Shown piece after piece: positions 35,986-64,000 of a DNA stretch of 64,000 bases. Location of the stretch: positions 4,379-68,378 of the forward strand of contig CAZTQT010000003.1 in NCBI GenBank assembly GCA_964615625.1, given 5' to 3'. Position 1 is the first letter of the stretch; each line of letters begins with the position of its first letter. The translations under genes were made by a program, and so were the position numbers. The notes under the pieces are model-generated. The model was not told where the DNA came from and made no database searches. It saw only the letters and a program-made list of their open reading frames with translations. This DNA is from an uncultured Candidatus Saccharibacteria bacterium (GTDB lineage: Bacteria > Patescibacteriota > WWE3 > UBA101185 > UBA10185).

Positions 35986-35986
35986 T

Positions 35987-37969: not shown

Positions 37970-37973
37970 AATT

Positions 37974-38611: not shown

Positions 38612-39649
38612 TTGATGATGAAAGACCTGCAACCAAAACAAGAAAAAGAAGGATCCGGTGTAGTAAGATATTGGAGAAAACATCCAAAGTCTATAGAGAA
38701 ATATCAATTTGTTTATCGTTTTTTACCCAAAGATGATAAGAAAAAAAGAGCAGATTTTCTTGATAATAAGGCTATTTTAATCTATTGTGCCGTAATACTT
38801 TTTGTAACATTAGCTTTTAGATTTATTCCAAAATTTGCACCTGGGGTTTTAGGCTACGCTTCAAATATAAGTGTGTCCGATCTTTTGAAGTACACTAATA
38901 AGAAGAGAGAGGAGAACGGGGCTTCAAATTTAAGGTTAAACGCAAAATTGTCTTCAGCTGCGGAAAAGAAAGCTCAAGATATGTTTGCAGACGGTTATTG
39001 GGCTCATGTAGCTCCGGATGGAAAAGAACCTTGGGATTTCATTATTTCTGAAGGCTATGATTACATATATGCTGGTGAAAATCTTGCAAAGAACTTCTCT
39101 ACTTCAAAAGAAGTTGTAGAGGCTTGGTTTAATTCTCCATCTCACAAGAGTAATCTTATAGGTAAAAATTATGATGAGGTTGGTTTTGCAGTTGTTAACG
39201 GTGTTATGGATGGTTATGAAACAACTCTGGTAGTACAAATGTTTGGCAGACCAAGACAACCTTCTATGTTAGCTGATACTAAAGAAGAGCAAGCAGTTTT
39301 GGAAAAAAGTCAGATTAAAGCTGTGACTTCTGTTGCTGGAGCTACAGAAAAAACAGAAAATCTCAACGAACCTCCCAGTGAGGAGCAAAAAGACCCTGAG
39401 GAGAATAACACTGTTGTAGTGGCCACAAACCCACAAGAAACAAAAGTTGTGGTAGATGTAACAAAAGCTACAAAAACAGTCAGTCTTGCCTTTGGAGGAT
39501 TTGTAGGGTCCCTTCTTGCAGTAGATGTTTTATATTCAAGAAAGAAAGGTATTAGGAAATTTACGGGTCTGACTCTAGCCCATATTGTTATTATAGCTAT
39601 GGTTATTGCTAGTATTTGGTTTATATTAAGACCTGGGTTGGTAGTTTAA
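38612..39649 (+). CDS. CAP/SCP/PR-1-like domain membrane protein
   Basis: 345 aa. N-terminal TM, a CAP domain (AHVAPDGKEPWDFI...NSPSHKSNLIGKNYDEVGFAV), an acidic/Thr linker and a C-terminal TM anchor. Confidence 0.6.
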   Translation: MMMKDLQPKQEKEGSGVVRYWRKHPKSIEKYQFVYRFLPKDDKKKRADFLDNKAILIYCAVILFVTLAFRFIPKFAPGVLGYASNISVSDLLKYTNKKREENGASNLRLNAKLSSAAEKKAQDMFADGYWAHVAPDGKEPWDFIISEGYDYIYAGENLAKNFSTSKEVVEAWFNSPSHKSNLIGKNYDEVGFAVVNGVMDGYETTLVVQMFGRPRQPSMLADTKEEQAVLEKSQIKAVTSVAGATEKTENLNEPPSEEQKDPEENNTVVVATNPQETKVVVDVTKATKTVSLAFGGFVGSLLAVDVLYSRKKGIRKFTGLTLAHIVIIAMVIASIWFILRPGLVV

Positions 39650-39656
39650 GGAGAAT

Positions 39657-39917
39657 ATGTTGGAAAATATAAAAGAAAACAGAATAGAATATTTTATCTT
39701 AATGGTGGCAGTGATAGCTTTTATTATTCTGATTTATATTTTTAGGTTTAATAAAGATGTTTTGATATTGCTTAGTGGGTTAGGTTCTGTTTTATACATT
39801 TTTTGGGGTATAATTCACCACTATATAAGAGGAAAACTAACAAAAAACATAGTTTATGAGTATTCTTTGTTTGGTTTGTTATCATTCCTTTTATTCTTTG
39901 TTGTTTTAAGTTTTTAA
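39657..39917 (+). CDS. Small predicted membrane protein (3 TM) of unknown function
   Basis: 86 aa, hydrophobic; tightly packed between the CAP protein gene and the GT2 gene. Confidence 0.35.
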   Translation: MLENIKENRIEYFILMVAVIAFIILIYIFRFNKDVLILLSGLGSVLYIFWGIIHHYIRGKLTKNIVYEYSLFGLLSFLLFFVVLSF

Positions 39918-39920
39918 GTT

Positions 39921-41051
39921 ATGAAAATAGTTATTGTAGTTCCTACTTATAACGAGTCTAAAAATATAGGCAGGTTAATAGAGGCACTAGATAAAGAATT
40001 TAAAAATATTCCTTCCCATGAGCTAAATCTTTTGGTAGTTGAAGGTAATTCCCCTGACGGCACTGCTGACGTAGTGAGAGACAAAATGAAAGATTATAAA
40101 TTTGTTCATCTGTTAATGGAGGAGAAAAAAGCTGGTTTAGGAGCAGCATATGTTTATGGTTTCAAACATGCTATGAAAGAAATGGGGGCTGATGTTTTGA
40201 TAGAAATGGATGCGGACTTTCAACATGATCCAAAGGAAATAAAAAACCTTGTAAAACAAATTGATGAAGGTTATGACTACGTTATAGGTTCCAGATTTGT
40301 AAAAGGAGGTAGTATCCCAAAGGAATGGGAGTTTAAGAGAAAAATGTACAGTAAGCTAGGTAATACCCTTTCTAAAGTTATTCTTGGTGTTAAAGGAGTT
40401 AATGACTTTACGACAGGTTACAAAGCTTCAAGGGTTAAGGGATATGCAGATTCCATTGATTTAGATAATATCTTATCAAAAGGTTTTGCTTATAAAATGG
40501 ATCTTTTGTATAAAATGCACAAAGCAGGTGCAAAAATAAAGGAAATTCCTATACAGTTTGGTTTAAGAGACGAGGGTACATCCAAAATGGAGAGAAATAA
40601 CATGATAGATTCTCTAAGAGTGGTTTTAAATCTTCGTCTGAAAGATCCTCAAACTCAAAAATTTCTTAAATTTTGTATTGTTGGTGTTACGGGTCTTATT
40701 GTTGATTCCGGTCTTTTTAATGTTTTAAGAATTTCTTTTTCAAATTCAAAGACGGCCTCTTTACTATCGGGTTTAATTGCTATGCTCGTGACTTTTACTA
40801 TTAATAACTTTTGGTCTTTTAAAGAAAATAAGATATCTGGAATAGTTGGAAAAATAAAGGGTTTTCTCATTTATATACTTTCTTCTTATGTCCCAATATT
40901 TTTACGTTCTCAAATGATAAAATTTTCGGTATCACAATTTGGAGACACATTTTTAGTTTCTAATATTACATTTTTTATAGGGATAATGCTTGGCTTAATA
41001 TGGAACTATACTGTGTATAATAAGATAATATGGAAGGAAAAGGATCTGTGA
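39921..41051 (+). CDS. GT2 polyprenol-phosphate glycosyltransferase (DPM1-like) fused to a GtrA-like TM domain
   Basis: MKIVIVVPTYNESKNI...EMDADFQHDP...; C-terminal FLKFCIVGVTGLIVDSGLFNVL is GtrA-like with 4 TM helices. Confidence 0.7.
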   Translation: MKIVIVVPTYNESKNIGRLIEALDKEFKNIPSHELNLLVVEGNSPDGTADVVRDKMKDYKFVHLLMEEKKAGLGAAYVYGFKHAMKEMGADVLIEMDADFQHDPKEIKNLVKQIDEGYDYVIGSRFVKGGSIPKEWEFKRKMYSKLGNTLSKVILGVKGVNDFTTGYKASRVKGYADSIDLDNILSKGFAYKMDLLYKMHKAGAKIKEIPIQFGLRDEGTSKMERNNMIDSLRVVLNLRLKDPQTQKFLKFCIVGVTGLIVDSGLFNVLRISFSNSKTASLLSGLIAMLVTFTINNFWSFKENKISGIVGKIKGFLIYILSSYVPIFLRSQMIKFSVSQFGDTFLVSNITFFIGIMLGLIWNYTVYNKIIWKEKDL

Positions 41052-41827
41052 AGTATTCAATAGTAATACCAACTTACAATGAGTCAGGTAGAATATCTCC
41101 CACTCTTGTCCAAATCCTTGGTTTTATGAGGGGGTATACAGAATCTTTTGAAGTTATAGTCTCTGATGATAATAGTTCTGATAATACTTTAGAAATAGTT
41201 AAAAATCTTGCAAGTGAGAATTCTGAGATAGTAGTTTTAGAAAACCCACATAGAGGTAAAGGTCCTACAGTTTGGTCAGGTTTTATGGAGGCCAAAGGAG
41301 ACCTTATTTACATGGCCGATGCTGATTTGTCGGCACCTATATCTGAAATAAAAAAACTTTCTGTTTGGATAGAAGAACAGGGATATGACGTTGTTATAGC
41401 TTCCAGAGAAGGTGTAGGTGCAGAAAGAATAAATGAACCTTTTCACAGGCATCTTATGGGAAGAGTTTTTAACTTTTTAGTTAGGATAATAGCTCTACCT
41501 GGAATAAAAGATACACAATGTGGTTTTAAACTTTTTACTAAGAAATGTGTTAAAGATGTTTTTCCAAGGATAGAGTCGCTTAAGAACGCAAAAGAGCTAA
41601 AATCAGCTTATACTGGGGCGTGGGATGTAGAAGTTTTGTTGCTATCTAGGCAGTTAGGTTATAAAATAAAGTCCGTTCCTGTTACTTGGGTACATGTGAA
41701 GACAGAAGGAGTGAGTCCTATAAGGGATTCAATTAAAATGGCCCTTGAAATATTGCAGATAAAATGGCGTTTTGTTAGGGGAAAATATAAATCTGCTCAA
41801 CTTACCTCAATTTCCCCACAAGAATAG
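41030..41827 (+). CDS. GT2 glycosyltransferase (dolichyl-phosphate glucosyl/mannosyl-transferase-like)
   Basis: YSIVIPTYNESGRI...ADADLSAPISEI...QCGFKLF. Overlaps the preceding gene; an alternative GTG start at 41048 is possible. Confidence 0.7.
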   Translation: MEGKGSVKYSIVIPTYNESGRISPTLVQILGFMRGYTESFEVIVSDDNSSDNTLEIVKNLASENSEIVVLENPHRGKGPTVWSGFMEAKGDLIYMADADLSAPISEIKKLSVWIEEQGYDVVIASREGVGAERINEPFHRHLMGRVFNFLVRIIALPGIKDTQCGFKLFTKKCVKDVFPRIESLKNAKELKSAYTGAWDVEVLLLSRQLGYKIKSVPVTWVHVKTEGVSPIRDSIKMALEILQIKWRFVRGKYKSAQLTSISPQE

Positions 41828-41858
41828 ATATTTATTTATGAGGTGTTTTTAAATTAAT

Positions 41859-43229
41859 ATGAAAATATGCGTTGTAGGTACAGGTTATGTTGGTTTAGTT
41901 GGTGCGGCTGTTTTTTCAGATTGGGGGAATGATGTAGTAGGTGTTGATATAAATGCCGAAAAAATAGAGAGAATTAAAAAAGGCGATATGCCTATATTTG
42001 AGCCTAGTCTTTCGGAGATAGTTTTAAAAAATATAAGTGAAGGTAGATTATCTTTCACGACATCTCTTTCAGAAGGTGTAAAAAAATCTGACATCATTTT
42101 CATCTGTGTTGGAACTCCTCAAAGTGAGGCAGGGGATGCTGATTTATCATTTGTTTGGAAAGTAGCTGAAGACATAGGAAAATGTTTAGATGGGTATAAA
42201 GTGATTGTTGTAAAAAGTACAGTACCTGTAGGGACAAATGAGATAGTAAAGAAAAAAATAAAAGAAAATCTTACTTACAACGTAGATTTTGATGTTGTTT
42301 CTAATCCTGAGTTTTTAAGAGAAGGTTATTCAGTAGAAGATATGAGAAACCCTGAAAGAACAGTTATAGGTTCTGATTCAGAAAAAGCTTTGTCTATTAT
42401 GAGAGAACTTTATTCTCACCTAGAAAGACCTATTGTTGAATGTGATCTAAGATCGGCCGAAATGATTAAGTATGCCTCTAACGCTTTTTTGGCGTCAAAA
42501 ATATCTTTTATAAATGAGATGGCTCAACTTTGTGAGAGATCTGGTGCTGATGTATCAACAGTAGCAAAAGGGATGGGTTTAGATTCAAGAATAGGTCCAA
42601 AGTTTTTGAATGCTGGTATAGGTTATGGTGGTAGCTGTTTCCCTAAAGATGTATCGGCTCTTTATAAAACTTCAACTAACCAAGATTATGACTTCAGACT
42701 CCTGAGAGGTGTTATAGAAGTTAATAAATTACAAAGAGAGTATTTTGTTAACAAAATTTCAAGGTATTTTGATGGTAATTTGTCTGGAAAGACTATTGGA
42801 GTTTTGGGATTATCTTTTAAGGAAAATACTGATGATGTGAGAGAGTCAGTAGCAATGGGAGTTGTTAAACATTTACGCGGTCTTGGGGCAAAAATAAAAG
42901 CTTTTGATCCAGAGGCAATGTACAATGCAAAGAAGGTTTTAGGAGAAGTGAGTGTTGATTATTGTTTAGATAAATATGAGGTAATGCATGATTCAGATGC
43001 TCTTGTTATATTGACCGAGTGGAAAGACTTCTCCAACCTAGATCTTGATAAAGTTAAATCTTTATTAAAAGAACCCGTGATATTTGACGGTAGGAACGTG
43101 CTTGATAGAAAGAAAGTCGAATCAGCTGGGTTTGTGTATTTTGCTGTAGGTAAGAGAACCAACGGGACCGAGTTGTTAGATAAAAAATCTAGCAGCGGTT
43201 CTGGTGTAATATTAAGAGATGGGAAATAA
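41859..43229 (+). CDS. ugd: UDP-glucose 6-dehydrogenase family (nucleotide-sugar dehydrogenase)
   Basis: MKICVVGTGYVGLV Rossmann N-terminus and GYGGSCFPKD catalytic Cys motif. Confidence 0.85.
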   Translation: MKICVVGTGYVGLVGAAVFSDWGNDVVGVDINAEKIERIKKGDMPIFEPSLSEIVLKNISEGRLSFTTSLSEGVKKSDIIFICVGTPQSEAGDADLSFVWKVAEDIGKCLDGYKVIVVKSTVPVGTNEIVKKKIKENLTYNVDFDVVSNPEFLREGYSVEDMRNPERTVIGSDSEKALSIMRELYSHLERPIVECDLRSAEMIKYASNAFLASKISFINEMAQLCERSGADVSTVAKGMGLDSRIGPKFLNAGIGYGGSCFPKDVSALYKTSTNQDYDFRLLRGVIEVNKLQREYFVNKISRYFDGNLSGKTIGVLGLSFKENTDDVRESVAMGVVKHLRGLGAKIKAFDPEAMYNAKKVLGEVSVDYCLDKYEVMHDSDALVILTEWKDFSNLDLDKVKSLLKEPVIFDGRNVLDRKKVESAGFVYFAVGKRTNGTELLDKKSSSGSGVILRDGK

Positions 43230-44457
43230 AAAAGCCCTTATCTTTATACCGGAATTTCCGGTTCTTACAGAGACATTTATAGAGCGAGAAGTCTCAAAGC
43301 TTTCAGAGCGGGGTAATGTAGATGTTGTTGTATTTTCTATCCTAAAGGGAAAGGGAAGTGTTTCTTCTGAACTGAATGGTAAGATTGTTTATAGCAGACC
43401 CGCTGTTCTTGATATTCTAGAATCTGCTTTTTTTGTGATTTCTAAGTTTAGAAAAATAAAAAGCGCTTTTAGTAATTTTATTAGTATTGAGAACACAGGT
43501 GCCTCTCCAGATGTAATTGCAAATCAAGCAAGTTTTGGAAAGAAATTATATGTCTTCTTAAAATCCGTTTTATACGCTCACAAATTTTCCAAATTAAACC
43601 CGAACATTATTTTGGCTCATTTTTTATCAGAACCGTCTACAATAGCTATGATTATTGCTAATATACTGGAAGTTCCTTACATTATCTCAGCACATGCAAA
43701 AGATATAACGGTAAATTCTGAATATGTTGAGGAAAAGGTTAAAACTGCGAAATATATAACAATATGTAACAAAAATGCTTATCAAAATGTTCTATCTTGG
43801 GCCAATAAATTAGGAAAAAACAATGTGGTTTTAGCTTACCATGGTGTTGATACCTATAAAATTTCACAAATACCAGAAAAAGCGAATTTAGACGTAAAGC
43901 GGCCCTATATGTTATCCGTTGGTAGATTAGTTGAGAAAAAGGGTTTAGTTTATTTAATTGAAGCTATTAAAATTCTGAAAAATAAGGGTATTTTAATTAA
44001 TTCTGCCATTATAGGTTCCGGACCTTTGTACGAGGTTTTAGTGGAGAAAATAAAAGAACTAGGTCTAGTTGAAACGGTAAAAATAATTGGTGAAAATAAA
44101 GGACTGTCCAATGAAGAAACACTTTCTTACTATAAATCAGCTGATTTCCTAGTTTTTCCAAGTATACAAACTAAAGAAGGAGACGTTGATGGTATAGCCA
44201 ATGTTTTATTTGAAGCAGGTGCTTTTAAACTGCCAGTGATAGCCACTGACGCTGGGAGTACAAATGAATTGATAATAGATAATTTGACCGGTTTGGTTTG
44301 TAGACAAAAAGATCCAACTTGTCTTGCTGATAAAATTGAGGAATTAGTAAATAACAAGGAAAAGGCAAAAATATTAGGAGAAAACCTTTATAATAAGGTT
44401 AAGGAAGATTTCAGTTTAGATAAAAATATAGAAAAACTGGAACAAATGCTTTTATAA
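43219..44457 (+). CDS. GT4-family glycosyltransferase (WcaL-like)
   Basis: LSVGRLVEKKGLVYL...FLVFPS...EGDVDGIANVLFEAGAFKLPVIATDAG. Confidence 0.7.
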   Translation: MGNKKALIFIPEFPVLTETFIEREVSKLSERGNVDVVVFSILKGKGSVSSELNGKIVYSRPAVLDILESAFFVISKFRKIKSAFSNFISIENTGASPDVIANQASFGKKLYVFLKSVLYAHKFSKLNPNIILAHFLSEPSTIAMIIANILEVPYIISAHAKDITVNSEYVEEKVKTAKYITICNKNAYQNVLSWANKLGKNNVVLAYHGVDTYKISQIPEKANLDVKRPYMLSVGRLVEKKGLVYLIEAIKILKNKGILINSAIIGSGPLYEVLVEKIKELGLVETVKIIGENKGLSNEETLSYYKSADFLVFPSIQTKEGDVDGIANVLFEAGAFKLPVIATDAGSTNELIIDNLTGLVCRQKDPTCLADKIEELVNNKEKAKILGENLYNKVKEDFSLDKNIEKLEQMLL

Positions 44458-44459
44458 AA

Positions 44460-45641
44460 ATGAAAATAGCTGTATTTGCAAAATCTACAACACTTCACAA
44501 AAATTATGGGGGTTTAGAAACTCAGAACAGAGCTTTGTGTGAGGAACTTGTGAAAAGGGGACATGAAATAACAATTTTTTCACCTAAAAGAGATTTTGAG
44601 GGAGATGATGCTTTTGTTAATGGTGTAAAGTACGTTTTTATTGATGCTGAGTATGGAAACTATTTATTTTCAGGTTTAAAAAAGGATAGCTGGACAAAGA
44701 AGTCTTTAGAGGTTTTTGAAGAATTTCATAAAAAAGAAAAATTTGATTTGGCTTTAGGTCAAAGTTCTGCCGCGGAAAGTATCATTGAAAATAAAATTAA
44801 ACTTAATATTAAAACTGCTTCAATATCACATGGAACCGCTTTATCGGAGCTTGTCACTTTCTTTAAAAATATCTCAGGAATTAAAGATATTTACTGGTCA
44901 TTGAGGAATACTCAATATTTTTTAAGACAGTATTTTGGTAGACAAAGAAGGTTTGTTTTACACTCTGACGTTGTGGTTGCAGTATCACATTATGTTAAAA
45001 AAGCTTTAATTTCAGAGACTTTTGTTGATGATAAAAAAGTCAAAGTTATACATAACGGAGTTGATGGGTCGTTATTTGAAAATAAAAAAACAAAAACAGA
45101 TGAAAAAAATACAGACATTTACTTTATAGGCAGGGTAGAAAAATCAAAAGGGATAATGACTGTTATAAAAATGATGAAAGAAATTGATAGAAATGTGAAA
45201 CTGCATGTTGTTGGTGACGGACCTTGTTTAGAAGAAGCAAAAAAGAAAGCTGAAGATTTAAATATTAAAGATAGGGTTATATTTCACGGAAAAATGCCTC
45301 ATTATGAATTTATAAAAAATTTATCACCCGACGTTTTTGTTTTTCCAACCAATAGAGTAGAAGGATTTCCAATGGTTTTAGTTGAATCTATGTTCTCTGG
45401 AATACCTGTTGTGGCTTTTGATATGGGTGGTGTTCCCGATGCTATAGAAGATGGTAAAAACGGGTTTTTGATAGAAAGTGGCAATAAAGTGTTATTTAAG
45501 AAAAAACTAGTAGAATTAATAGATAATAAAACTTTAAGAGATAATATGGGAAATTATGCAAAAGAAAAAGCTGAAAAAGAATTTACAATTGGTAAAATGA
45601 TAGATGATTACGAAAAAGTTTTTTTGGACATATTAAAATGA
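44460..45641 (+). CDS. GT4-family glycosyltransferase
   Basis: FIGRVEKSKGI...VFVFPTNRVEGFPMVLVESMFSGIPVVAFDMGG. Confidence 0.7.
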   Translation: MKIAVFAKSTTLHKNYGGLETQNRALCEELVKRGHEITIFSPKRDFEGDDAFVNGVKYVFIDAEYGNYLFSGLKKDSWTKKSLEVFEEFHKKEKFDLALGQSSAAESIIENKIKLNIKTASISHGTALSELVTFFKNISGIKDIYWSLRNTQYFLRQYFGRQRRFVLHSDVVVAVSHYVKKALISETFVDDKKVKVIHNGVDGSLFENKKTKTDEKNTDIYFIGRVEKSKGIMTVIKMMKEIDRNVKLHVVGDGPCLEEAKKKAEDLNIKDRVIFHGKMPHYEFIKNLSPDVFVFPTNRVEGFPMVLVESMFSGIPVVAFDMGGVPDAIEDGKNGFLIESGNKVLFKKKLVELIDNKTLRDNMGNYAKEKAEKEFTIGKMIDDYEKVFLDILK

Positions 45642-46840
45642 AAATATTAAGACTTATATACGATTGGCCACCTCCCTGGCAGGGTTTGGCGGCTCATCCA
45701 TACGAACTAACTGCTAGTCAGTTAAAAGAAGGTCATGAGGTAGAGATTTTTTGCGGGAGGTGGCCAAATGCTGGGGCTATAGAAAATCCTGGGGGTGCAA
45801 AAATAAACCCTATTATAAGAGAGCCTCTTCCTGGAACTATATTTTTTACAAGTTCCGTGATTCTATTTTTTAAGTATCTTATATGGAGAAGGAAAAATAC
45901 CCCAGATATAATTCATTCTCACGGGCATTTTGCGGTTTGGATCTACTGGTATAGGTGGTTTTTGCAGAAATTTTTTCCATGGTCAAAAGAACTAAATGTA
46001 CCTTTAGTTGTCCATTTTCATAATGTTGCTAAAGATAGGTGGGCCAAAATGGAGGAGCAAAATAAACCTATAACCCCCTTAGCTAGGTATTTGGTTTGGC
46101 CATTATCCATTTTTTCTGATAAACACGCTGTAAAAGCTGCAGCAGCCTGTATATTTGTTAGTAAATCTAATTTAGAAAAAGCTGTTGAATATTATGGAGC
46201 AGACCCAAAGAGATGTTTTTTTGTTGAGTCTGGTGTTAATCCTGAGTTGTTCAAGCCTGTAGGTGTGGAGGAGATGGAGAAATCTAGACGTGATCTAGGT
46301 CTTGATATTGAAGATAAAGTAATACTTAACCATGGGGTTATGTCCGAAAGAAAGAATGTTCACTTGTTAGTCGAAGCTTTAAGATATTTGCCAAAAGACT
46401 ACAAACTTTTAATGGTAGGTCCTGGAGATTCTGGATATATGGGAAAAATAAATGAGACTATTAAGATAAATGGTTTAGAAGGTAGGGTTGTAAAAGTAGG
46501 TTATACACCTTATGTTCAAGTCCCTATCGCATATCAGGTGTCTGACATTTTTGTACTTCCGTCAGTTTGGGAAGGTCTGCCTAAAGTTGTTACACAAGGT
46601 CTTTCTTGTGGCATACCGTGCTTAGTTTCAGGTTTCAAGCTATCAGAAGATATAGAGGGTTTGTATTATCTGGAAGATCTAGATGCTGAGTATATTGCTA
46701 ATTATATTTTTAAAATTGTTGATGGTGGTTTGAGTACCGTAGATTTTAATAAAGTAGCCTTAATATATTCTTGGACTGCTAGGGCCAGAGAAATAGATAG
46801 AGTATACGAATTTGCCAAAGCGAATTATCTTTTAGAATAA
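45638..46840 (+). CDS. GT4-family glycosyltransferase
   Basis: NHGVMSERKNVHLLVEA...IFVLPSVWEGLPKVVTQGLSCGIPCLVS. Confidence 0.65.
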   Translation: MKILRLIYDWPPPWQGLAAHPYELTASQLKEGHEVEIFCGRWPNAGAIENPGGAKINPIIREPLPGTIFFTSSVILFFKYLIWRRKNTPDIIHSHGHFAVWIYWYRWFLQKFFPWSKELNVPLVVHFHNVAKDRWAKMEEQNKPITPLARYLVWPLSIFSDKHAVKAAAACIFVSKSNLEKAVEYYGADPKRCFFVESGVNPELFKPVGVEEMEKSRRDLGLDIEDKVILNHGVMSERKNVHLLVEALRYLPKDYKLLMVGPGDSGYMGKINETIKINGLEGRVVKVGYTPYVQVPIAYQVSDIFVLPSVWEGLPKVVTQGLSCGIPCLVSGFKLSEDIEGLYYLEDLDAEYIANYIFKIVDGGLSTVDFNKVALIYSWTARAREIDRVYEFAKANYLLE

Positions 46841-46871
46841 TCAGTTATAATACAGGTCGTTTTGGTTTTAT

Positions 46872-49016: not shown

Positions 49017-49024
49017 CTTTTAAT

Positions 49025-54601: not shown

Positions 54602-54602
54602 C

Positions 54603-56360: not shown

Positions 56361-57648
56361 AATAAAACAAATTGGTAATAATGAAGAAGTTTTGGATACT
56401 ATCATTGTTAGTATTGCTACTTTAGTAGGTTCGGTTTTTAGCTATCTTTTGCAATTTGTTTTAGGACGAAAATTATCTGTTGAGGATTACGGTACTTTTA
56501 ATACCCTTCTTTCTTTAACCACTATAGTTGGAGTTTTATCGGGAGTTTTAGGAACGGCTTTAATAAAAGTATCTGCCGAGATGTATGCTAAAGATAAAGA
56601 TAATGGAAAGTTAGAGTACTTTCTTTACAAAACCTTGGCTTTTTCCTTTTTAGCTTTAATTATTTCGTTTTTCCTAGGAGTCTTATTTTCTAATTTTGTT
56701 TCTATTTATTTGAATATAAACGACAGTGTTTTAATAATGCTCTTAGGTTTATTTGTAGGACTCTCCTTTTTACTGATAGTTCCCCAAGCTTTTTTGCAAG
56801 GAGTACAGAAATTTAGGAGGTATTCAATTTTTCATGTTGTGAATATGGTTTTAAGGTTAGTTATTCCTATAGTCTTTGTTTATGCCGGGTTTAGCATTAG
56901 AGGTGTCTGGGTTGGTTTATCTGTATCTTATGTTTTTTCATTTTTGTTGGGAATGTTACTGCTAAAGGTTAAAGTTAAAAATGTTGAAAAAAAGGACATT
57001 TCATCTTATTTGGAGAAATTAAAATCCTTATCTGTTTCAATAATTTTAGTTAATTTTGCTTTAATGTTTTTAAACAATATTGATGTGATTATGGTTAAAA
57101 AGTACTTTTCTCCTACAGAAGCAGGTTATTATTCTGGAACTGTAACTTTAGGAAAAATATTACTTTTTGGAGCTGGGGCCTTTACTACAGTTATGTTTCC
57201 AAGAATAACTGCACTTTACGTTAGTGGTAAGGAGTTTATACATAAGCTAAAAATGATATTTTTTCTTCTTCTTGGAGTGCTTTTTGTAGGAGTTTTATGT
57301 TATAGAATTTTCCCAGAGTTTTTAACTAGAGTTTTCTTTGGAGAGGCTTTTATGAGTTCTCAAGAATACTTACCTTTGTTTTCTATATTTGTTTCTATTT
57401 ATGTATTAATAAATTTTTTAGTTATGTTTTTCTTGGCTATAGATAAAAAAGCTGTGGGTTTTTTGTTACTGCCGGGGGTTGTGGCACAGTATATTCTTTT
57501 AAATATTTTCCATGATAGTTTATGGGATGTAATAAAAATAAATATAGGAGTTAGTGTTTTTATACTTGTGTTGTTGTTGGTTTACGGATTGTTTGGGAAA
57601 ATATTGAATAAAATGTCGTCTTTTGAAAAAAGTAGAAAATTTAAGTAG
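56317..57648 (+). CDS. Second Wzx-like flippase (MOP superfamily)
   Basis: Polytopic, with a Polysacc_synt-like N-terminus (IATLVGSVFSYLLQFVLGRKLSVEDYGTF). Start is ambiguous: ATG at 56317 or GTG at 56341. The ORF-track start at 56281 overlaps the upstream gene by 80 nt. Confidence 0.55.
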   Translation: MFTKTRGKVSIIKSKIKQIGNNEEVLDTIIVSIATLVGSVFSYLLQFVLGRKLSVEDYGTFNTLLSLTTIVGVLSGVLGTALIKVSAEMYAKDKDNGKLEYFLYKTLAFSFLALIISFFLGVLFSNFVSIYLNINDSVLIMLLGLFVGLSFLLIVPQAFLQGVQKFRRYSIFHVVNMVLRLVIPIVFVYAGFSIRGVWVGLSVSYVFSFLLGMLLLKVKVKNVEKKDISSYLEKLKSLSVSIILVNFALMFLNNIDVIMVKKYFSPTEAGYYSGTVTLGKILLFGAGAFTTVMFPRITALYVSGKEFIHKLKMIFFLLLGVLFVGVLCYRIFPEFLTRVFFGEAFMSSQEYLPLFSIFVSIYVLINFLVMFFLAIDKKAVGFLLLPGVVAQYILLNIFHDSLWDVIKINIGVSVFILVLLLVYGLFGKILNKMSSFEKSRKFK

Positions 57649-57659
57649 AATTTCATCTG

Positions 57660-58364
57660 ATGAATAAATTAAGAAGTTTAGCAAATAATTGGATGTGTGG
57701 TGTTGAGGAGACAAACCGAAGGAATATATTGAGTATGCTTGATAAAAATCCAGATGCTAAAGTGTTGGATTTAGGATGTGATGATGGTTCTTGGAGTATA
57801 GAGTTAGGAAAAGAAATTGGTTCTAATAATATTTATGGGGTTGAGGTTGTTGAGAGTAGGGCAAAAGATGCAATGGATAAAGGTGTTGTGATAAAGGGTT
57901 TTGATTTAAATGGGGAATTTGATTTTGAGGATAATTTTTTTGATGTAGTTCATTCTAATCAAGTAATTGAGCACTTACACGATACCGATAATTTTATTTC
58001 CGAAATATACAGAATTTTAAAACCTGGAGGATACATAATAGTATCTACCGTTAATTTAGCAAGTTGGCATAATGTTTTTTCATTAATATTGGGTTTTCAG
58101 CCTTTTGATGTTACTAATATAAGTATTAAGGGGAGCGTTGGGAACCCAGTTTCTATTTGGCGTGGTGTTGATAGTGGGTTTAATAAGCATAAGTCTTGGC
58201 AACATGTCAGAATGTTTACGCTACGTGCTCTGAAAGAATTTTTAGAATTATATGAATTTAAAGATATTAAATCCAAATCTGCTGGTTATTACCCATTACC
58301 AAATTTTTTTGCCAATATAGATAAAAATCACGGCCACTATATCGTTGTCAAAGCTTACAAATAA
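57660..58364 (+). CDS. Class I SAM-dependent methyltransferase
   Basis: VLDLGCDDGSW (motif I), VVHSNQVIEHL, ILKPGGYIIVST. Confidence 0.7.
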   Translation: MNKLRSLANNWMCGVEETNRRNILSMLDKNPDAKVLDLGCDDGSWSIELGKEIGSNNIYGVEVVESRAKDAMDKGVVIKGFDLNGEFDFEDNFFDVVHSNQVIEHLHDTDNFISEIYRILKPGGYIIVSTVNLASWHNVFSLILGFQPFDVTNISIKGSVGNPVSIWRGVDSGFNKHKSWQHVRMFTLRALKEFLELYEFKDIKSKSAGYYPLPNFFANIDKNHGHYIVVKAYK

Positions 58365-58454
58365 TAAGAGTCTCATCAATGTCAATTTTTCTCTAATGTT
58401 TAAGGTGTGTTGGTTATAATTAGTAAAATATCCATAATATAGTAAAATGACAGT

Positions 58455-59273
58455 GTGACTTTAGCCAATAAAACAGTATCACTCATAATCCCAGCCTATA
58501 AGCAGGAAAAAACTATTGTAGAAGATGTGAATAGGATACTCGATACGGTTTCACAGACTAGATGGAAGTTTGAAGTGATTGTTGTTGTAGATGGGTTTGT
58601 AGATAAAACATTTGAAAATTTAAAAGAAGTAAAAGACAACAGTGTTAAAGTTTGTGGGTATAAAGAAAACAAAGGAAAAGGTTATGCTATAAGATACGGG
58701 ATGACCAGAGCCAAAGGTGATTACATTGCCTTCATAGATTCTGGGATGGATATAGATCCAAATGGTATATCAATGTTGTTGGAGCATATAGAGTGGTATG
58801 ACGCTGATATAATTGTGGGTAGTAAAAGACACCCAGCGTCAGTGGTGTATTACCCATTTGTTAGAAGGGTCTACAGTTTTGTGTATAGTAAGATGGTTAG
58901 AATTTTGTTTGGTTTATCTGTTACTGACACCCAATCTGGAATAAAAGTCTTTAAGAGCGAGGTTTTAGAGAAAGTTCTTCCAAGACTAGTTGTTAAGAGA
59001 TTTGCCTTTGACATTGAAATATTAGCTGTGGCTAGGTATTTAGGATTTAAGAAGATATATGAGGCACCTATAAAGGTTAACTGGGGAGAGGGTTACACTG
59101 ATTTTAGTTTCCTCTTTATATTTGATAAAAATATTAGAAGGATGATTATAGATACATTAGGTGTTTTTTACAGATTAAGGATATTAGATTACTACAGTGA
59201 TAAAAAGAAGAGAGATTGGGTTTATGACAAAGATTTAGATATGAAGATAAATACAGGGAGGTTAGATGAATAA
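58455..59273 (+). CDS. GT2 glycosyltransferase (GTG start)
   Basis: VSLIIPAYKQEKTI...VIVVVDGFVDKT...AFIDSGMDIDP. Confidence 0.65.
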   Translation: MTLANKTVSLIIPAYKQEKTIVEDVNRILDTVSQTRWKFEVIVVVDGFVDKTFENLKEVKDNSVKVCGYKENKGKGYAIRYGMTRAKGDYIAFIDSGMDIDPNGISMLLEHIEWYDADIIVGSKRHPASVVYYPFVRRVYSFVYSKMVRILFGLSVTDTQSGIKVFKSEVLEKVLPRLVVKRFAFDIEILAVARYLGFKKIYEAPIKVNWGEGYTDFSFLFIFDKNIRRMIIDTLGVFYRLRILDYYSDKKKRDWVYDKDLDMKINTGRLDE

Positions 59274-60357
59274 AAGATATATATTTTTTATAGGAACTCT
59301 AGCAGAGTTTATTAAAATTTTTCCCATAATGAAGAGGTTTACAGACCTAAATATACCTTTTGAGATTATTGCATCAGGTCAAAACGATATTGAAAATTCG
59401 GAGATTTTTTCATATCTGAAGTTAGAAAAGGTTAATTTAAAACTTTCAAATGGCCCTAAGAAAAAGACAGCTTTATCACTGTTTTCTTGGTTTGTGAAAA
59501 CATTTTTTTCATCAATATTTGTTGTTAAAAAATATTTAAAAGATACAAAAACAGATAAGGAATCTGTAATGATAGTTCATGGGGATACTGTGTCTACTTT
59601 AATGGGGGCTTATGTTGCAAAAATATTAGGTGTGAAGGTTGCTCATATAGAGGCTGGTTTAAGATCTTTCAATATTTTTCACCCATTTCCAGAGGAAATA
59701 AATAGAGTTTTAACATCTAAAGTTGTTGATAAGCATTTTTGTCCAAATGACTGGGCAGTCAATAATTTAAAAAATATTAAAGGAGAAAAAATAAACACCC
59801 TAAACAACACTTTATTAGAAAGTTTGCATTTATCTAAAGAGATCCCAACTCCAGATAATATAAAAACACTTTTAAATAGAAAACCGTTCTTTATTTTTGT
59901 AGTTCATAGACAAGAGAATTTATATAACAGTCAAAGATTGAATAATTTTATAAATGACATGTTAGATTTATCAAATGAAATGCATTGTATTTTTATACTT
60001 CACGAACCTGCAAAAGTAGCTTTGGAAAGCGCTGGTTTACTAGAAAATATAACTAGCGCCAAAAATATTACAGTACTTCCACGACAGGGTTATTTTGATT
60101 TTATGAAACTAATAGATGGTTGTGAGTTTTTTGTTACTGATGGTGGTAGTAATCAAGAAGAGGCTTACTATTTTGGTAAACCGTGCTTAATCCTAAGAGA
60201 TCATACTGAAAGATTAGAAGGTCTTGATAATAATGTTTTATTGTGGCAGGAGGGTAAAAACAGTGTTAAGGATTTTGGTAAAAACTATATGAAATATAAG
60301 TGTGATTTTGTTTCTTATGATGTGCCTCCAAGTAAAATAATTTGTGAAAATTTATAA
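59266..60357 (+). CDS. UDP-N-acetylglucosamine 2-epimerase family (WecB-like)
   Basis: FIGTLAEFIKIFPIM...MIVHGDTVSTLMGAYVAKILGVKVAHIEAGLRSFNIFHPFPEEINRVL. Confidence 0.7.
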   Translation: MNKRYIFFIGTLAEFIKIFPIMKRFTDLNIPFEIIASGQNDIENSEIFSYLKLEKVNLKLSNGPKKKTALSLFSWFVKTFFSSIFVVKKYLKDTKTDKESVMIVHGDTVSTLMGAYVAKILGVKVAHIEAGLRSFNIFHPFPEEINRVLTSKVVDKHFCPNDWAVNNLKNIKGEKINTLNNTLLESLHLSKEIPTPDNIKTLLNRKPFFIFVVHRQENLYNSQRLNNFINDMLDLSNEMHCIFILHEPAKVALESAGLLENITSAKNITVLPRQGYFDFMKLIDGCEFFVTDGGSNQEEAYYFGKPCLILRDHTERLEGLDNNVLLWQEGKNSVKDFGKNYMKYKCDFVSYDVPPSKIICENL

Positions 60358-61398
60358 ATGTCTAAGGAAATATACTTTAGTGTAATTATGCCCACTCTTA
60401 ATAGTGAATCTACTATTGAGAAATCTTTAATTTCAATAAGATCTCAAAACTTTGACCAAGATCAGGTTGAAATAATAGTGGCTGACGGAGGTTCCGTTGA
60501 TAAAACTAAGGAAATAGCTCAAAAATATTCATGCAGAATTTTGCATAATGAACAAGTACAGCCAGAATCAGCCAAATATATAGGAATAACCAACGCAAAA
60601 GGAAAGGTATGTTTATTTTTAGATTCAGACGAGGTTTTAAAGGATAAGGAATCTTTCAAAAAAAGAAAAGATATATTTGAAAACTTTCAAGATGCTAAAG
60701 TTATTTTATTTGGTGGGTATGAGAAGCCGGAGGGAGAATCATCACTAAACGATTATATAAATTATTATTCTGACCCATTTTCATTTTTTGTGTCAAAAAC
60801 CTCAACAGAGCATAAAGTGATACACAGTGTTTGGAAAAATAATTTTAAAGATTTTAGTGAAGAAGATAGTTATATTAAATTTAGATTAAAAGATTCTGAT
60901 TACTTACCCCCGGTGGATATGTGTGCAGGTAACTGCTTTTTACGTGAGTACTATTTGGATTTGGTTGGGGAAGAGATAAAAGACCAAATGATTGTGCCTG
61001 AAATATTTTACAGAATAGTTAAAGATACAGGGTGTTTTTACATGTTAAAAGATTCTCCTACGATCCATAACTCTTCCGTTGGTCTTGGACAATATATTAA
61101 AAAATTGAATTGGAGAATTATAAACAATGTTCATTATAAAAATGTTCCTGGAACAGGGTTTTCAAATAGAGAAGAATTTCAGCCCAAAGGATCCTCACTT
61201 AAAAAATATTTGTTTATACCTTTTGCATTGACAATAATAGGACCGTTAATCGTTAGTATTTATATGGCTCTCAAGTATAAAAAACCTATTTTGTTACTAA
61301 ATTTTCCATTAACAATTTATGTTGCTTTTTATATTTCTTATCAATATATTAGGCTAATATTTGGAAGAAAATCTGCTTTAAAACCTTATGGAAAATAG
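60358..61398 (+). CDS. GT2 glycosyltransferase with C-terminal TM helices
   Basis: FSVIMPTLNSESTIEKSL...VADGGSVDKT...LFLDSDEV. Confidence 0.65.
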   Translation: MSKEIYFSVIMPTLNSESTIEKSLISIRSQNFDQDQVEIIVADGGSVDKTKEIAQKYSCRILHNEQVQPESAKYIGITNAKGKVCLFLDSDEVLKDKESFKKRKDIFENFQDAKVILFGGYEKPEGESSLNDYINYYSDPFSFFVSKTSTEHKVIHSVWKNNFKDFSEEDSYIKFRLKDSDYLPPVDMCAGNCFLREYYLDLVGEEIKDQMIVPEIFYRIVKDTGCFYMLKDSPTIHNSSVGLGQYIKKLNWRIINNVHYKNVPGTGFSNREEFQPKGSSLKKYLFIPFALTIIGPLIVSIYMALKYKKPILLLNFPLTIYVAFYISYQYIRLIFGRKSALKPYGK

Positions 61399-63427
61399 TA
61401 AATTTAGCAATGTTTTAATACTATCTCACTCTCAAGAAGGCACCGTAGGAGCCGATGATGAGCTTTTAAAGTATGTGGTAAAAAAAGGGATTGAATCTCA
61501 TCTTTTTCAATTTCCATTTGTTCATTCTTCTGATGGGGCTACCAGAATCACACACGTTGTAAATAAAGAATATGTAGCTTTGAGGTCTAAAATAAAATTT
61601 TATAAACCCCAATTATTATCTTATGTGAAAGATGTGGTTTCTGCGTTTTTTTATTGCAAGAAATACATAAAAAACAATTCTCTTATTGTATGTTCAGACA
61701 ATATACTTGTTCTATCCGCACATTTATCATCCATTTTTGCAAAGTTTTTTGGAAAAAAGCCAAAAATTGTTTATTACGTTATAGATTACACACCAAGAAG
61801 ATTTAAAAGTACTTTTTTAAATTCGATTTATGAGTGGGTTGATAAAAAAGCCTTTGAATATACAGATTTTGTATGGGTTTTAAATAAGGAAATGATAAAT
61901 GGAAGGTTGAATGATAAAGGGTATCCAAAAAGAGATGACAACATTGCAGTAGTTCCATTTGGAAATAATTCTTTAGATTATAAAGATGAAGATTACAATA
62001 ATTTTGACATTAATAATATTGTGTACTTGGGTGGTGTTTACAAAAGCAAAGGATCTGAACTTTTTACAGATATAGTTAAAGAGTTAATAAAAAAAGGATA
62101 TAAAGGTATAAAACTACACGTCATTGGAGGTGGTGCTACCGATGAGTTGAAAGAAGCATCAAAAGAAAAGGGTTTAGAAGAAAATGTAATAGTCTATGGA
62201 AGAAGTGCCGATCAATCAGAAACAGAAAAATTACTTTTGAAGTGTGCCTTAGCAATAGCTCCGTATAACCCGAATGATAAAAATAGTTTTTCCTTTTATG
62301 CTGATCCAGGGAAAGTTAAAGTTTACTTAGGTTGTGGGTTACCTATTGTAATAACAGAAGTTCCAAGTATTTATAAAATTTTAGTTCAAGAAAAAGCAGG
62401 GCTTACAGCAAAATACGAAGGTAAGGATTTTGCCGATAAAATTGAAAAAGTGATGGAAGATATTAAAAATTATAGAAGTAATGCAAGACAACTTGGCCTT
62501 AAATATTCTTGGGATAGTATATTTTCAGAAGCTTTTGATTTTGTAAATTATAATGAGGGAATGAAAAAAATTAAAAGAAAATTTAACTATTCTTTTATAG
62601 ACAAAGCAAGGTTTTATATATCCTACTCTTATTATAGATTTGTAAGATTTTTTATTGATGTAAAGAGAGATAGGGTAAAACTTTTTATAAAACAGCTTAT
62701 TTTATTTTCCAACCAGTTATTAAAGACCAAAACAGATCTATGGAAAAAGATATATGCAGATAATATATCTTCTAGGTATGGGGATTTCAAAGTAAGGTCT
62801 GATACGTTAGATTTTTTCTGCGTTATGCCGTTTTTTGAAAGACAGGATATATCACATATGGGGAAGGTAATCTCAAACTCATTAGAGGAGGGAAAGAAAG
62901 TTCTTTTTATTGATGTTGGTGCTGATATAGGGACTTACTCCGTCCAAATAGGAAGGGTTTTTTCTAACAGAATAAAAATTGTTTCATTTGAACCTTGTGA
63001 GGAAAGTTATAAATATTTAAAAGAAAATTTGTCTAATAACAAAGTTGAAGCTGATGTTTTTAACGTAGCTTTATCGGATGAAAATACTGAGGGATATCTT
63101 AATTACGATAAAACTCTACCTGGAAATAATAGGCTGCTAGATCCACAAGATAGGTTAGGGGAAAAGATATATATAAAAACTATGGATAGTGTTCTTGATT
63201 CTAATTATTTTAAACAATTTGACACTGTTGTTGTAAAAATGGATATAGAAGGAAGTGAATCCAAGTGTCTAAAAGGTTGTAATAATTTATTAAAGTCTGG
63301 AAAAGAGATATTTTTGTTGGTTGAGGATTTTGTAGATACAAGAATAATAAATGACTTACAAGATAGGGGTTTTAGTTTTATTAATAAGAAAACACCTTAT
63401 AATAGTTGGTGGTATTTGGGTTTATAA
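61388..63427 (+). CDS. Fusion protein: GT4-like glycosyltransferase domain plus FkbM-family methyltransferase domain
   Basis: N-terminal roughly 370 aa is GT4-like (IVYLGGVYKSKGSELF...KVYLGCGLPIVITEVPS). C-terminal domain has LFIDVGADIGTYSV...VVVKMDIEGSESKCL, typical of Methyltransf_21/FkbM. Confidence 0.6.
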   Translation: MENSKFSNVLILSHSQEGTVGADDELLKYVVKKGIESHLFQFPFVHSSDGATRITHVVNKEYVALRSKIKFYKPQLLSYVKDVVSAFFYCKKYIKNNSLIVCSDNILVLSAHLSSIFAKFFGKKPKIVYYVIDYTPRRFKSTFLNSIYEWVDKKAFEYTDFVWVLNKEMINGRLNDKGYPKRDDNIAVVPFGNNSLDYKDEDYNNFDINNIVYLGGVYKSKGSELFTDIVKELIKKGYKGIKLHVIGGGATDELKEASKEKGLEENVIVYGRSADQSETEKLLLKCALAIAPYNPNDKNSFSFYADPGKVKVYLGCGLPIVITEVPSIYKILVQEKAGLTAKYEGKDFADKIEKVMEDIKNYRSNARQLGLKYSWDSIFSEAFDFVNYNEGMKKIKRKFNYSFIDKARFYISYSYYRFVRFFIDVKRDRVKLFIKQLILFSNQLLKTKTDLWKKIYADNISSRYGDFKVRSDTLDFFCVMPFFERQDISHMGKVISNSLEEGKKVLFIDVGADIGTYSVQIGRVFSNRIKIVSFEPCEESYKYLKENLSNNKVEADVFNVALSDENTEGYLNYDKTLPGNNRLLDPQDRLGEKIYIKTMDSVLDSNYFKQFDTVVVKMDIEGSESKCLKGCNNLLKSGKEIFLLVEDFVDTRIINDLQDRGFSFINKKTPYNSWWYLGL

Positions 63428-63428
63428 C

Positions 63429-64000
63429 ATGAAGAGGTTTAATAACAGGATAAAAGATAATATGTACACTGCTTGGAGAGTGGTTTCTCCTGTATTTGAT
63501 GTCACAAAGCCAGTAAACGGTATAAAAGGTTATTTTTGGTTTATAAGAGACATTCTAAAATTTAACAAACTTAATCCAAAGGAAAAAATTAAACTGTCTC
63601 TTATATCTCCACAGCTTATGGATAAGACATCCGTGACCCATTTTGACGCCCATTATTTTTATCAGCAACTTTGGGCATTTGAGAAGATATTTAAATCTAA
63701 AGTGAAAAGACATGTGGACGTAGGATCAACATTTGAAATGAGTGGTTACATATCTAAAATAACAAAAGCGGAATTTGTTGATATAAGACCTTTAGAGGTT
63801 AACTTAAATAATTTTAAGTCTGTTGATGGTAGTATTGAGAATTTACCTTACGGGAGTGGTGAGTTAGATTCTGTATCTTGTTTACATGTAATTGAACATA
63901 TAGGTTTAGGAAGATATGGGGATAAAGTTGATCCAAGTGGTCATGAAAAAGCTATAAAAGAATTACAGAGAGTTGTAAAAACAGGTGGGAGTTTATATCT
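63429..64000 (+). CDS. SAM-dependent methyltransferase-fold protein (partial; 3' end outside window)
   Basis: ATG at 63429; the frame stays open to the window end. VDVGSTFEMSGYIS...ENLPYGSGELDSVSCLHVIEHIGLGRYGDK...LQRVVKTGGSLY has a MT motif I and a post-I acidic loop. Confidence 0.5.
   Translation, partial: MKRFNNRIKDNMYTAWRVVSPVFDVTKPVNGIKGYFWFIRDILKFNKLNPKEKIKLSLISPQLMDKTSVTHFDAHYFYQQLWAFEKIFKSKVKRHVDVGSTFEMSGYISKITKAEFVDIRPLEVNLNNFKSVDGSIENLPYGSGELDSVSCLHVIEHIGLGRYGDKVDPSGHEKAIKELQRVVKTGGSLY

Follow-up and report, generated by a model that had tools for sequence, protein, structure and literature searches.

A candidate cell-envelope glycoconjugate assembly cluster downstream of adk in WWE3 bacteria, with a conserved gene block and a species-specific tail

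The window analysed here is a stretch of 64,000 nucleotides (nt) of contig CAZTQT010000003.1 from a bacterium of the WWE3 lineage (Katanobacteria, Patescibacteria), and coordinates refer to it unless another sequence is named. Its segment 38612-64000, directly downstream of adk, carries a run of genes for glycosyltransferases (GT), flippases and methyltransferases. With a confidence slightly better than even, we read this run from its sequence homologies as the core cell-envelope glycoconjugate assembly cluster of WWE3, composed of a conserved block of ~20.6 kb and a species-specific decoration tail. The segment 38.6-59.3 kb (from the CAP gene to GT2_272, ~20.6 kb) is a lineage-conserved syntenic core, and only the part after it varies by species. 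The Patescibacteria, or candidate phyla radiation (CPR), are ultra-small, mostly uncultured episymbionts whose envelope chemistry is essentially uncharted. No description of this cluster was found in the literature searched. WWE3 was noted for an exceptional abundance of glycosyltransferases, its first complete genome (RAAC2) has no identifiable complete peptidoglycan pathway, and CPR bacteria have no lipid A (Kantor et al. 2013, PMC3812714). The formerly vague glycosyltransferase richness of WWE3 now takes the form of a defined conserved block of ~20 kb with three to four putative synthases of the dolichol-phosphate-mannose synthase (DPMS) type, four to six predicted membrane glycosyltransferases of the GT-C fold, a UDP-glucose 6-dehydrogenase (UGD), three GT4 enzymes and flippases of three kinds, with the species-specific tail behind it.

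All open reading frames (ORFs) of at least 200 amino acids (aa) in 38612-64000 lie on the plus strand. They make up 20 complete genes and one cut by the window end (21 genes), and the uninterrupted co-directional run described in an earlier note on this DNA was thus recovered; minus-strand ORFs are short and nested within the plus-strand genes. The gaps between genes range from −80 to +90 nt for maximal ORFs and from −44 to +90 nt for the public gene calls of the same contig, by which 10 of 21 junctions overlap or abut. The tight packing and frequent short overlaps claimed in that note are real, but the many GTG starts it mentioned are an artefact of ORF extension. The public calls move the starts of CAP (38615), DUF2079 (46884), LPG_synthase_TM (50496), GTC2 (52970), GTC3 (54603) and Wzx2 (56317) inward, and the 21 genes then have 19 ATG, one GTG (58455) and one TTG (50496) initiation codons, that is two non-ATG starts. 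The GC content is 0.29-0.35 in the cluster and 0.33-0.37 in the ribosomal region; it changes without a sharp step, falling gradually from ~0.35 to ~0.30 along the cluster, the distal half being at 0.29-0.31. No intergenic terminator-like hairpin was found between 36000 and 56000 (six sites, all intragenic, versus 9.4 expected). In 18 of the 29 informative WWE3 species the cluster begins 17-20 nt past adk, where the spc operon of ribosomal genes ends. This spacing, together with the lack of a terminator, suggests constitutive expression of the cluster by read-through from the spc operon.

The relatives examined were contigs with DUF2079 orthologues at 75%, 61% and 51% identity and the GTDB species representatives. 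These three metagenome contigs display the same gene order: CAP, (86-aa protein), GT2-GtrA, GT2, UGD, three GT4, (GT-C X and GT2_228), DUF2079, Wzx, LPG_synthase_TM, three GT-C, Wzx, GT2. Pairwise protein identity between orthologues across this order is 46-81%. All 28 GTDB WWE3 loci of sufficient length have the order from GT2-GtrA through GT4c (UGD is missing in two), and the order from DUF2079 through GT2_272 is kept in all five relatives examined. The cluster directly follows rplO-secY-ybaB-adk in 18 GTDB WWE3 loci, as here; 11 others show neither secY nor adk within the 4-9 kb of sequence that could be inspected before CAP. What recurs in Microgenomates (Woese-, Ames- and Levybacteria) is GT2-GtrA with additional GT2 genes only, and about half of these loci have CAP in front.

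One junction of the core differs between species. GT4c and DUF2079 are separated here by 31-43 nt (46841..46883), whereas 27 related loci carry at this position a gene for a GT-C protein of ~535 aa, named X, and one for a 228-aa GT2 similar to DPM1, named GT2_228 (positions 7701-9993 in locus L002). PMT_2 is matched by 20 of 23 X orthologues, and the X profile aligns with that of GTC1/GTC3 at an hhalign probability of 95%. GT2_228 is 62-88% identical between species. The pair is absent from the window and from L001, the sequence of the source contig that runs past the window, in neither of which tblastn gave a match to X, and likewise from sister strains whose adk is more than 90% identical. 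The joint loss is consistent with X and GT2_228 being a transferase and its donor synthase, because the two genes are adjacent in relatives and were lost together here. It offers a natural experiment for pairing donor synthases with transferases. The GTDB locus L031 also seems to run straight from GT4c to DUF2079, a possible independent loss of the pair. In the sister strain JGI 3300010351 (L091 17674-18768) the third GT4 was called with 364 instead of 400 aa and a gap of 150 nt precedes DUF2079, which may reflect a truncation.

Domain calls were made with Pfam, NCBIfam and PDB sequence searches; scores described as below cutoff are under the model's own threshold. The domain list of the earlier note was reproduced gene for gene by Pfam, with support from the two other sources. 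Above cutoff, NCBIfam gave generic models only (NDP-sugar dehydrogenase, TIGR00374 flippase-like domain and FkbM).

The best defined assignments are those of enzymes that would load single sugars on polyprenyl phosphate. GT2-GtrA (39921..41051, +), a predicted polyprenyl-phosphate hexose synthase of the archaeal DPMS type, has a GT2 catalytic domain (Glycos_transf_2, 92 bits) fused to a GtrA-like domain with four transmembrane segments (GtrA_DPMS_TM, 55 bits, cutoff 26). It matches the Pyrococcus furiosus dolichol-phosphate-mannose synthase (PDB 5mlz) over its whole length (residues 1-371, E = 1.4e-42), its metal/donor motif EMDADFQH (DAD..Q) is invariant across orthologues, and its public annotation is dolichol-phosphate mannosyltransferase. 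Its top NCBIfam match is PgfS, and AglJ matches as well, both far below cutoff. GT2_265 (41030..41827, +; 265 aa; Pfam GT2, 95 bits) is a soluble DPM1-like protein devoid of hydrophobic segments and a candidate second polyprenyl-phosphate-sugar synthase; its best PDB matches are DPMS (5.5e-20), ArnC (7.8e-15) and GtrB (4.6e-11). GT2_272 (58455..59273, +; GTG start; GT2, 78 bits), the final gene of the conserved core, has a catalytic domain of the DPMS/GtrB kind that matches DPMS best (4.9e-12), then ArnC and GtrB; its orthologues are 64-75% identical and it has 5241 homologues at E ≤ 1e-40. The claim of polyprenyl-phosphate-sugar synthases in the earlier note is well founded on such similarities.

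UGD (41859..43229, +), predicted to form UDP-glucuronic acid, has all three UDPG_MGDP_dh domains; it scores 478 bits with the NCBIfam NDP-sugar dehydrogenase model, above cutoff, and 571 and 389 bits with TuaD and AglM, each below its own cutoff. The next three genes code for putative cytoplasmic GT4 glycosyltransferases: GT4a (43219..44457, +; Glycos_transf_1, 115 bits; EpsE-, TuaC- and WcaL-like, all below cutoff), GT4b (44460..45641, +; Glycos_transf_1, 135 bits, and Glyco_transf_4, 72 bits) and GT4c (45638..46840, +), assigned by Pfam, the most conserved of the three (74-81% identity to its L002 and L003 orthologues), whose best PDB match is MshA (3c4q, E = 1e-11).

Four predicted GT-C enzymes are encoded in the window, the number given in the earlier note: three of PMT_2 type and the DUF2079 protein, assigned by its modelled fold. 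The latter (46872..49016, +; probable ATG at 46884; 714 aa; Pfam DUF2079, 117 bits) combines a GT-C fold with a C-terminal β-sandwich domain. Its AlphaFold (AF2) model, built from an alignment of 40 sequences, has a mean predicted local distance difference test score (pLDDT) of 87.7 and a predicted TM-score (pTM) of 0.85. A Foldseek comparison with the PDB placed GT-C enzymes in all of the top 13 ranks, among them AglB (3wak, 3e-7), human and yeast STT3 (STT3A), the C-mannosyltransferase DPY19, EmbB and PglB. Over the membrane domain only GT-C enzymes are matched, with a TM-score of 0.36-0.45 to AglB/STT3, and the β-sandwich weakly resembles the glycan-binding C-domain of Wzt (2r5o, 3e-3). The first loop contains the invariant residues D45 and D50. 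We confidently assign DUF2079 on this model as a membrane glycosyltransferase of the GT-C fold; no mention of DUF2079 was found in the literature searched.

GTC1 (51394..52980, +) is a divergent PMT_2-type protein that scores 22.6 bits with this model, below the threshold of 26.1. It is paralogous to GTC3 (54573..56360, +; gene-call start ATG 54603; PMT_2, 38 bits; PMT, 18 bits), with 31% identity and a BLASTP E value of 1e-53 to the GTC3 orthologue of L002, and the two share an invariant acidic first loop. GTC2 (52964..54601, +; gene-call start 52970) scores 60 bits with PMT_2 and, more weakly, 30 bits with STT3, and has an invariant HPDEP motif; no match to it was obtained in a PDB sequence search. 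Its hhalign probability to GTC1/3 is 94%, and GTC1-3 and X are mutually related at 94-95%. The first extracytoplasmic loop has an invariant D/E in each GT-C family (DUF2079, GTC1/3, GTC2 and X). The motif WWDxG, or W[WY]D[YWFN]G, is absent from every GT-C of the cluster; N-glycosylation of the STT3 type was discarded on this ground, the STT3 match of GTC2 being weak and second to PMT_2. Outside the cluster, a further GT-C candidate encoded at 14003-15682 (minus strand) has an N-terminal PMT_2 match (20.8 bits, below threshold) and C-terminal TPR repeats, an architecture that resembles TMTC-type O-mannosyltransferases.

Proteins that might move lipid-linked sugars across the membrane are of three kinds. 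Two Wzx-like flippases of the MOP superfamily, each with 12 hydrophobic segments, are encoded at 49025..50515 (+; Polysacc_synt_3, 67 bits; Polysacc_synt, 66 bits) and 56281..57648 (+; gene-call start 56317; Polysacc_synt, 55 bits). LPG_synthase_TM (50460..51416, +; gene-call start TTG 50496) is similar to the flippase part of MprF (Pfam, 156 bits; TIGR00374, 79.5 bits, above cutoff) and had no match in a PDB sequence search. This protein and the GtrA-like domain are candidate translocation components, a function predicted from their families. An undecaprenyl-diphosphate phosphatase gene (UppP/BacA, 275 bits) is found at 10100-10918, 28 kb upstream of the cluster; its presence in the window would fit a working cycle of the polyprenyl-phosphate carrier.

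The block begins with a membrane-anchored CAP/YkwD-domain protein (38612..39649, +; probable ATG at 38615; Pfam CAP, 64 bits; NCBIfam YkwD family, 98 bits, below cutoff), in which hydrophobic segments lie on either side of the CAP domain. The second gene (39657..39917, +) codes for a membrane protein of 86 aa that has three hydrophobic segments, matches neither Pfam nor NCBIfam models and has orthologues restricted to the closest WWE3 relatives. In WWE3, and in roughly every second locus of Woese-, Ames-, Levy- and Blackburnbacteria (L038-L083), a membrane-anchored CAP gene stands immediately upstream of GT2-GtrA. A functional link of the CAP/YkwD protein to polyprenyl-phosphate-sugar synthesis is suggested.

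In the distal part, the gene for an S-adenosylmethionine (SAM)-dependent methyltransferase (57660..58364, +; Methyltransf_23, 84 bits) precedes the largest gap of the cluster (90 nt). Compared with the five relatives (L002/L087, L003, the P0060 contig, L088 and L089) it is inserted here, as none of them has it between Wzx2 and the GT2; L002 and L003 have no orthologue of it. The variable tail starts with a WecB-like protein of the UDP-N-acetylglucosamine 2-epimerase family (59266..60357, +; Epimerase_2, 184 bits; TIGR00236 wecB, 182 bits versus a cutoff of 210), present in L087 and not in L088 and L089. It continues with a GT2 that has a C-terminal hydrophobic region (60358..61398, +; 73.5 bits; hydrophobic segment at about residue 281), a GT4-FkbM methyltransferase fusion (61388..63427, +; Glyco_trans_1_4, 60.5 bits; Methyltransf_21, 35 bits; TIGR01444 FkbM, 71 bits, above cutoff) and a DUF268-type methyltransferase (63429..64000, +; DUF268, 55 bits), cut at the window end and 249 aa long on the source contig (L001 12075-12824). 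In relatives, GT2_272 is followed by an epimerase, GT2, GT4 and DUF268 in one case, by a B12-radical-SAM protein, FkbM and a Gtf3-like protein in a second, and by ferredoxin, radical SAM, an AftB_C-like protein, an epimerase and DegT in a third.

Past the window, the cluster goes on for at least 7.8 kb on the source contig (L001, identical over an overlap of 12.6 kb), with the full DUF268 methyltransferase, another methyltransferase and membrane proteins of 716, 536, 140 and 728 aa without a Pfam hit; two more GT4 genes lie ~4 kb past this extension. The 716-aa protein (TM716, P0136; L001 13504-15654) yielded four homologues in a word-index search of 5.8 billion proteins and 1105 relatives (E ≤ 1e-3) in an exhaustive HMMER profile search. 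PF11847 (GT-C_AftD) is matched by 24 of the 41 relatives sampled (best E = 3.6e-23); closer members of the family escape Pfam coverage, as TM716 itself does, and remoter ones match GT-C_AftD. The family profile aligns with those of DUF2079 (hhalign 95%), GTC2 (96%) and GTC1/3 (91%). Its structure model is poor (pLDDT 53), and the top Foldseek match, DPY19 (1.7e-3), only hints at GT-C. By these profile similarities TM716 is probably a divergent AftD-like GT-C rather than a Wzy polymerase. Comparison by hhalign of TM536, TM728 and TM140 with every GT-C profile gave nothing convincing (TM536 versus the TM716 family, 46%, E = 2e-4; others <5%). TM536 has 12 hydrophobic segments; the idea that it is a relocated copy of X was dropped, as the two have no similarity. 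Farther on, ~5-8 kb past the last cluster gene (L084 16444-19151), there is an acidic 89-aa ORF with an extremely high content of Asp and Cys; behind it come four tandem paralogues of ~190 aa without a Pfam hit, a 463-aa ORF and the two GT4 genes mentioned above, all on the plus strand.

We propose that the gene products could act in the following way. UGD would produce UDP-glucuronic acid. At the inner face of the membrane the three soluble GT4 enzymes, possibly with one GT2, may assemble a short primer, probably containing glucuronic acid, on a polyprenyl phosphate carrier, and the two Wzx-type flippases would export such lipid-linked intermediates. The GT2-GtrA fusion and the soluble DPM1-like GT2s would put single sugars on polyprenyl phosphate, whose crossing might be aided by the GtrA-like domain or the MprF-flippase-like protein. 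Outside, DUF2079, the three PMT_2-type GT-Cs and the AftD-like GT-C encoded beyond the window would extend, branch or transfer the glycan. The tail genes (2-epimerase, GT2, GT4-FkbM and four methyltransferases in all) could add strain-specific decorations, probably methylated and containing N-acetylmannosamine. A phosphoglycosyl transferase would be dispensable if the first sugar of the chain is put on polyprenyl monophosphate by a DPM1-like GT2; otherwise initiation would be encoded elsewhere in the genome. The pathway logic put forward in the earlier note, by which lipid-linked monosaccharide donors feed extracytoplasmic GT-Cs, is in this respect supported by homology and fold, but its framing of the genes as an island is not (see below). 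The analysis leans towards a glycopolymer or lipoglycan built stepwise rather than simple protein O-mannosylation, because GT-C paralogues are many and the numbers of DPM1-like synthases roughly match them.

Several points weigh against this proposal. All its steps are drawn from homology. Two Wzx-type flippases normally imply oligosaccharides linked to polyprenyl diphosphate, which need a phosphoglycosyl transferase. No such enzyme (WbaP/Bac_transf or WecA/Glycos_transf_4) was found among the 21 genes of the cluster in the window, the nine downstream, the annotated upstream genes and the loci of relatives, nor was a ligase or an LCP-type attachment enzyme in the cluster. The GT4 enzymes have no specific similarity to PimA/PimB, their best PDB match being MshA (1e-11). 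The GT-C status given to TM716 comes from transitive sequence homology with a poor structure model, the polytopic TM536 and TM728 and the 140-aa membrane protein match no family and could hide a polymerase, and the single pointer to co-transcription with the ribosomal operon is a spacing that suggests it.

The cluster has counterparts to parts of several known pathways. Synthesis of lipomannan, lipoarabinomannan (LAM) and arabinogalactan in actinobacteria (PimA/PimB, Ppm1, MptA/MptB/MptC, EmbA-C, AftA-D) follows the same split-compartment logic, with GT4 primer steps inside and paralogous GT-Cs outside. It also uses a DPM1-like synthase for the polyprenyl-phosphate-sugar, and GT-Cs of the AftD family, to which TM716 in the tail may belong, and AftB_C, similar to a protein in the tail of one relative. 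Corynebacterium glutamicum has in addition a glycolipid anchor with glucuronic acid. The cluster differs in its lack of PimA/B-specific GT4 similarity, GT87 or Emb-type Pfam hits and decaprenyl-phosphate-arabinose genes, in having two Wzx and an MprF-like flippase, and in its CPR host. The three-component systems (GtrA/GtrB/GtrC; CsbB/GtcA/YfhO; PgfS/PgfM1/PgfE/PgfM2; ArnC/ArnEF/ArnT) likewise have a GT2 synthase, a GtrA-type domain and a GT-C, but here the module is multiplied (three DPMS-like GT2s, four in relatives, and four to six GT-Cs) and embedded with GT4 and Wzx genes, and hits to YfhO or GtrC are lacking. Ugd is shared with the Arn pathway. This pathway was discarded as an explanation: ArnA, ArnB and ArnD are absent (no formyltransferase/decarboxylase, aminotransferase or deformylase domains), there is no lipid A, and hits to the ArnC model reach 64-69 bits versus a cutoff of 529.

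The Agl pathway of Haloferax volcanii (AglJ, AglG/I/E, AglM, AglP, AglD, AglR, AglS, AglB) has much of the same parts list, namely DPM1-like GT2s, a UDP-glucose dehydrogenase (AglM, 389 bits), SAM methyltransferases, a Wzx-like flippase and a PMT_2-like GT-C, which uses dolichol-phosphate-mannose in Agl. In Haloferax AglJ initiates on polyprenyl monophosphate, and initiation of this kind would explain the missing phosphoglycosyl transferase. The cluster differs by the lack of an AglB/STT3-type oligosaccharyltransferase, by hits to Agl models that are all far below cutoff and by its bacterial lineage. As to the Bacillus subtilis tuaABCDEFGH operon, the nearest counterpart of UGD is TuaD (571 bits), GT4 and GT2 enzymes match TuaC and TuaG, and a Wzx is TuaB-like; a glucuronic-acid-containing anionic polymer is a plausible product. 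Equivalents of TuaA (the phosphoglycosyl transferase), TuaE (polymerase) and TuaF (chain length) are missing, hits stay below the equivalog cutoffs, and the GT-Cs have no tua counterpart. Judged by sequence-model scores, the cluster belongs to none of the curated systems, since every equivalog model stays far below its cutoff.

A serious rival to stepwise glycopolymer assembly, which we see as possible but doubtful, has the same donor logic and differs only in the acceptor: polyprenyl-phosphate-sugars would feed PMT-like GT-Cs acting on Ser/Thr of S-layer, pilin or other surface proteins, like actinobacterial Ppm1/Pmt or the Streptococcus mutans PgfS/PgfM1/PgfE/PgfM2 system, with GT4 and Wzx supplying a larger glycan for transfer en bloc by a GT-C. 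The PMT_2/PMT matches of GTC2 and GTC3 speak for it, as do PgfS being the top NCBIfam match of GT2-GtrA, with AglJ also matching (both, as said, far below cutoff), and protein-modifying GT-Cs (AglB, STT3, DPY19) being the nearest folds to DUF2079. A glycosylated S-layer was proposed for WWE3 (PMC3812714). On the other side, known bacterial protein O-mannosylation makes do with one GT-C, as opposed to four to six here, no GT-C carries the oligosaccharyltransferase motif WWDxG, no O-oligosaccharyltransferase of the PglL/Wzy_C type was found in the cluster, and no candidate S-layer or pilin acceptor gene was identified within or beside it. A conventional Wzx/Wzy locus for a surface polysaccharide (O-antigen-, capsule- or teichuronic-acid-like) is, in our view, unlikely. 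It would place the phosphoglycosyl transferase elsewhere and the polymerase among the unannotated polytopic proteins, and leave to the GT-Cs the addition of side-branch sugars only, as in Gtr systems. Two Wzx-type flippases, the matches, each below cutoff, to three proteins of the teichuronic acid operon (TuaD, TuaC and TuaG), a conserved core with a variable tail as in serotype loci, and TM536 (12 hydrophobic segments) and TM728, which match no family, are what this explanation can call upon. However, the GT-C genes exceed the needs of side branches and belong to the conserved core, and Wzy_C, Wzz, Bac_transf and Glycos_transf_4 were detected neither in 33 kb here nor in the loci of five relatives. 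The earlier note, which reported no Wzy, Wzz or initiating transferase, thus held for the cluster and the five related loci, and also when the search was carried into the 10 kb downstream that it had not covered, where sequence methods detected no Wzy, Wzz or WbaP and TM716 is the probable AftD-like GT-C. Wzy proteins often escape detection by sequence. TM536 and TM728 cannot be a conserved polymerase, since their genes belong to the species-specific tail and neither turned up in the tails of the relatives examined; TM716 lies in the tail as well and has only four close homologues.

The third possibility, a horizontally acquired and strain-variable genomic island inserted after adk, is highly improbable and contradicted for 38.6-59.3 kb. 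The slightly lower GC content of the distal part (0.29-0.31 versus 0.33-0.37), the species-specific tail after GT2_272 and a post-adk position in only 18 of 29 informative species would agree with it. Against it, there is no GC break and no evidence of a tRNA-type boundary, integrase or repeat, low GC fits the composition of membrane proteins, and sister strains share an identical layout. The island was rejected on synteny: the order of the first ~20.6 kb is the same across WWE3 species, at 46-81% protein identity, so that this part is no island and variation is confined to the tail. Returning to the reading as a cell-envelope glycoconjugate cluster, its most specific form would make the block the source of the principal wall or surface polymer of WWE3, an acidic glycopolymer or lipoglycan with glucuronic acid, which several GT-Cs would polymerise on the outer side of the membrane from polyprenyl-monophosphate sugars and whose initiation would require no phosphoglycosyl transferase; the genes would be expressed as a continuation of the ribosomal-protein operon. 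Taken as a whole this is decidedly unlikely; if true, it would mean an envelope strategy similar to arabinogalactan/LAM, or of archaeal style, in a bacterial lineage. The block provides concrete targets for heterologous expression, glycan analysis and studies of host interaction. The analysis also gives DUF2079 a GT-C fold by modelling and ties AftD-type GT-Cs to an unannotated family with over 1000 members.

Upstream of adk, the ribosomal super-operon is split in the window. The genes infA, rpsM, rpsK, rpsD, rpoA, rplQ, rplM and rpsI are found at 3783-7840 on the minus strand, ~30 kb upstream of the spc part (27883-38594, +; ending in rplO, secY, the ybaB-like gene and adk) and inverted relative to it. 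GC skew changes sign at ~7.5-8 kb. The gene between secY and adk (37703-37969) codes for an 88-aa DNA-binding protein of the YbaB/EbfC family and keeps its position in WWE3 relatives; its identification as infA (or map) was rejected, infA being on the minus strand at 7622-7840.

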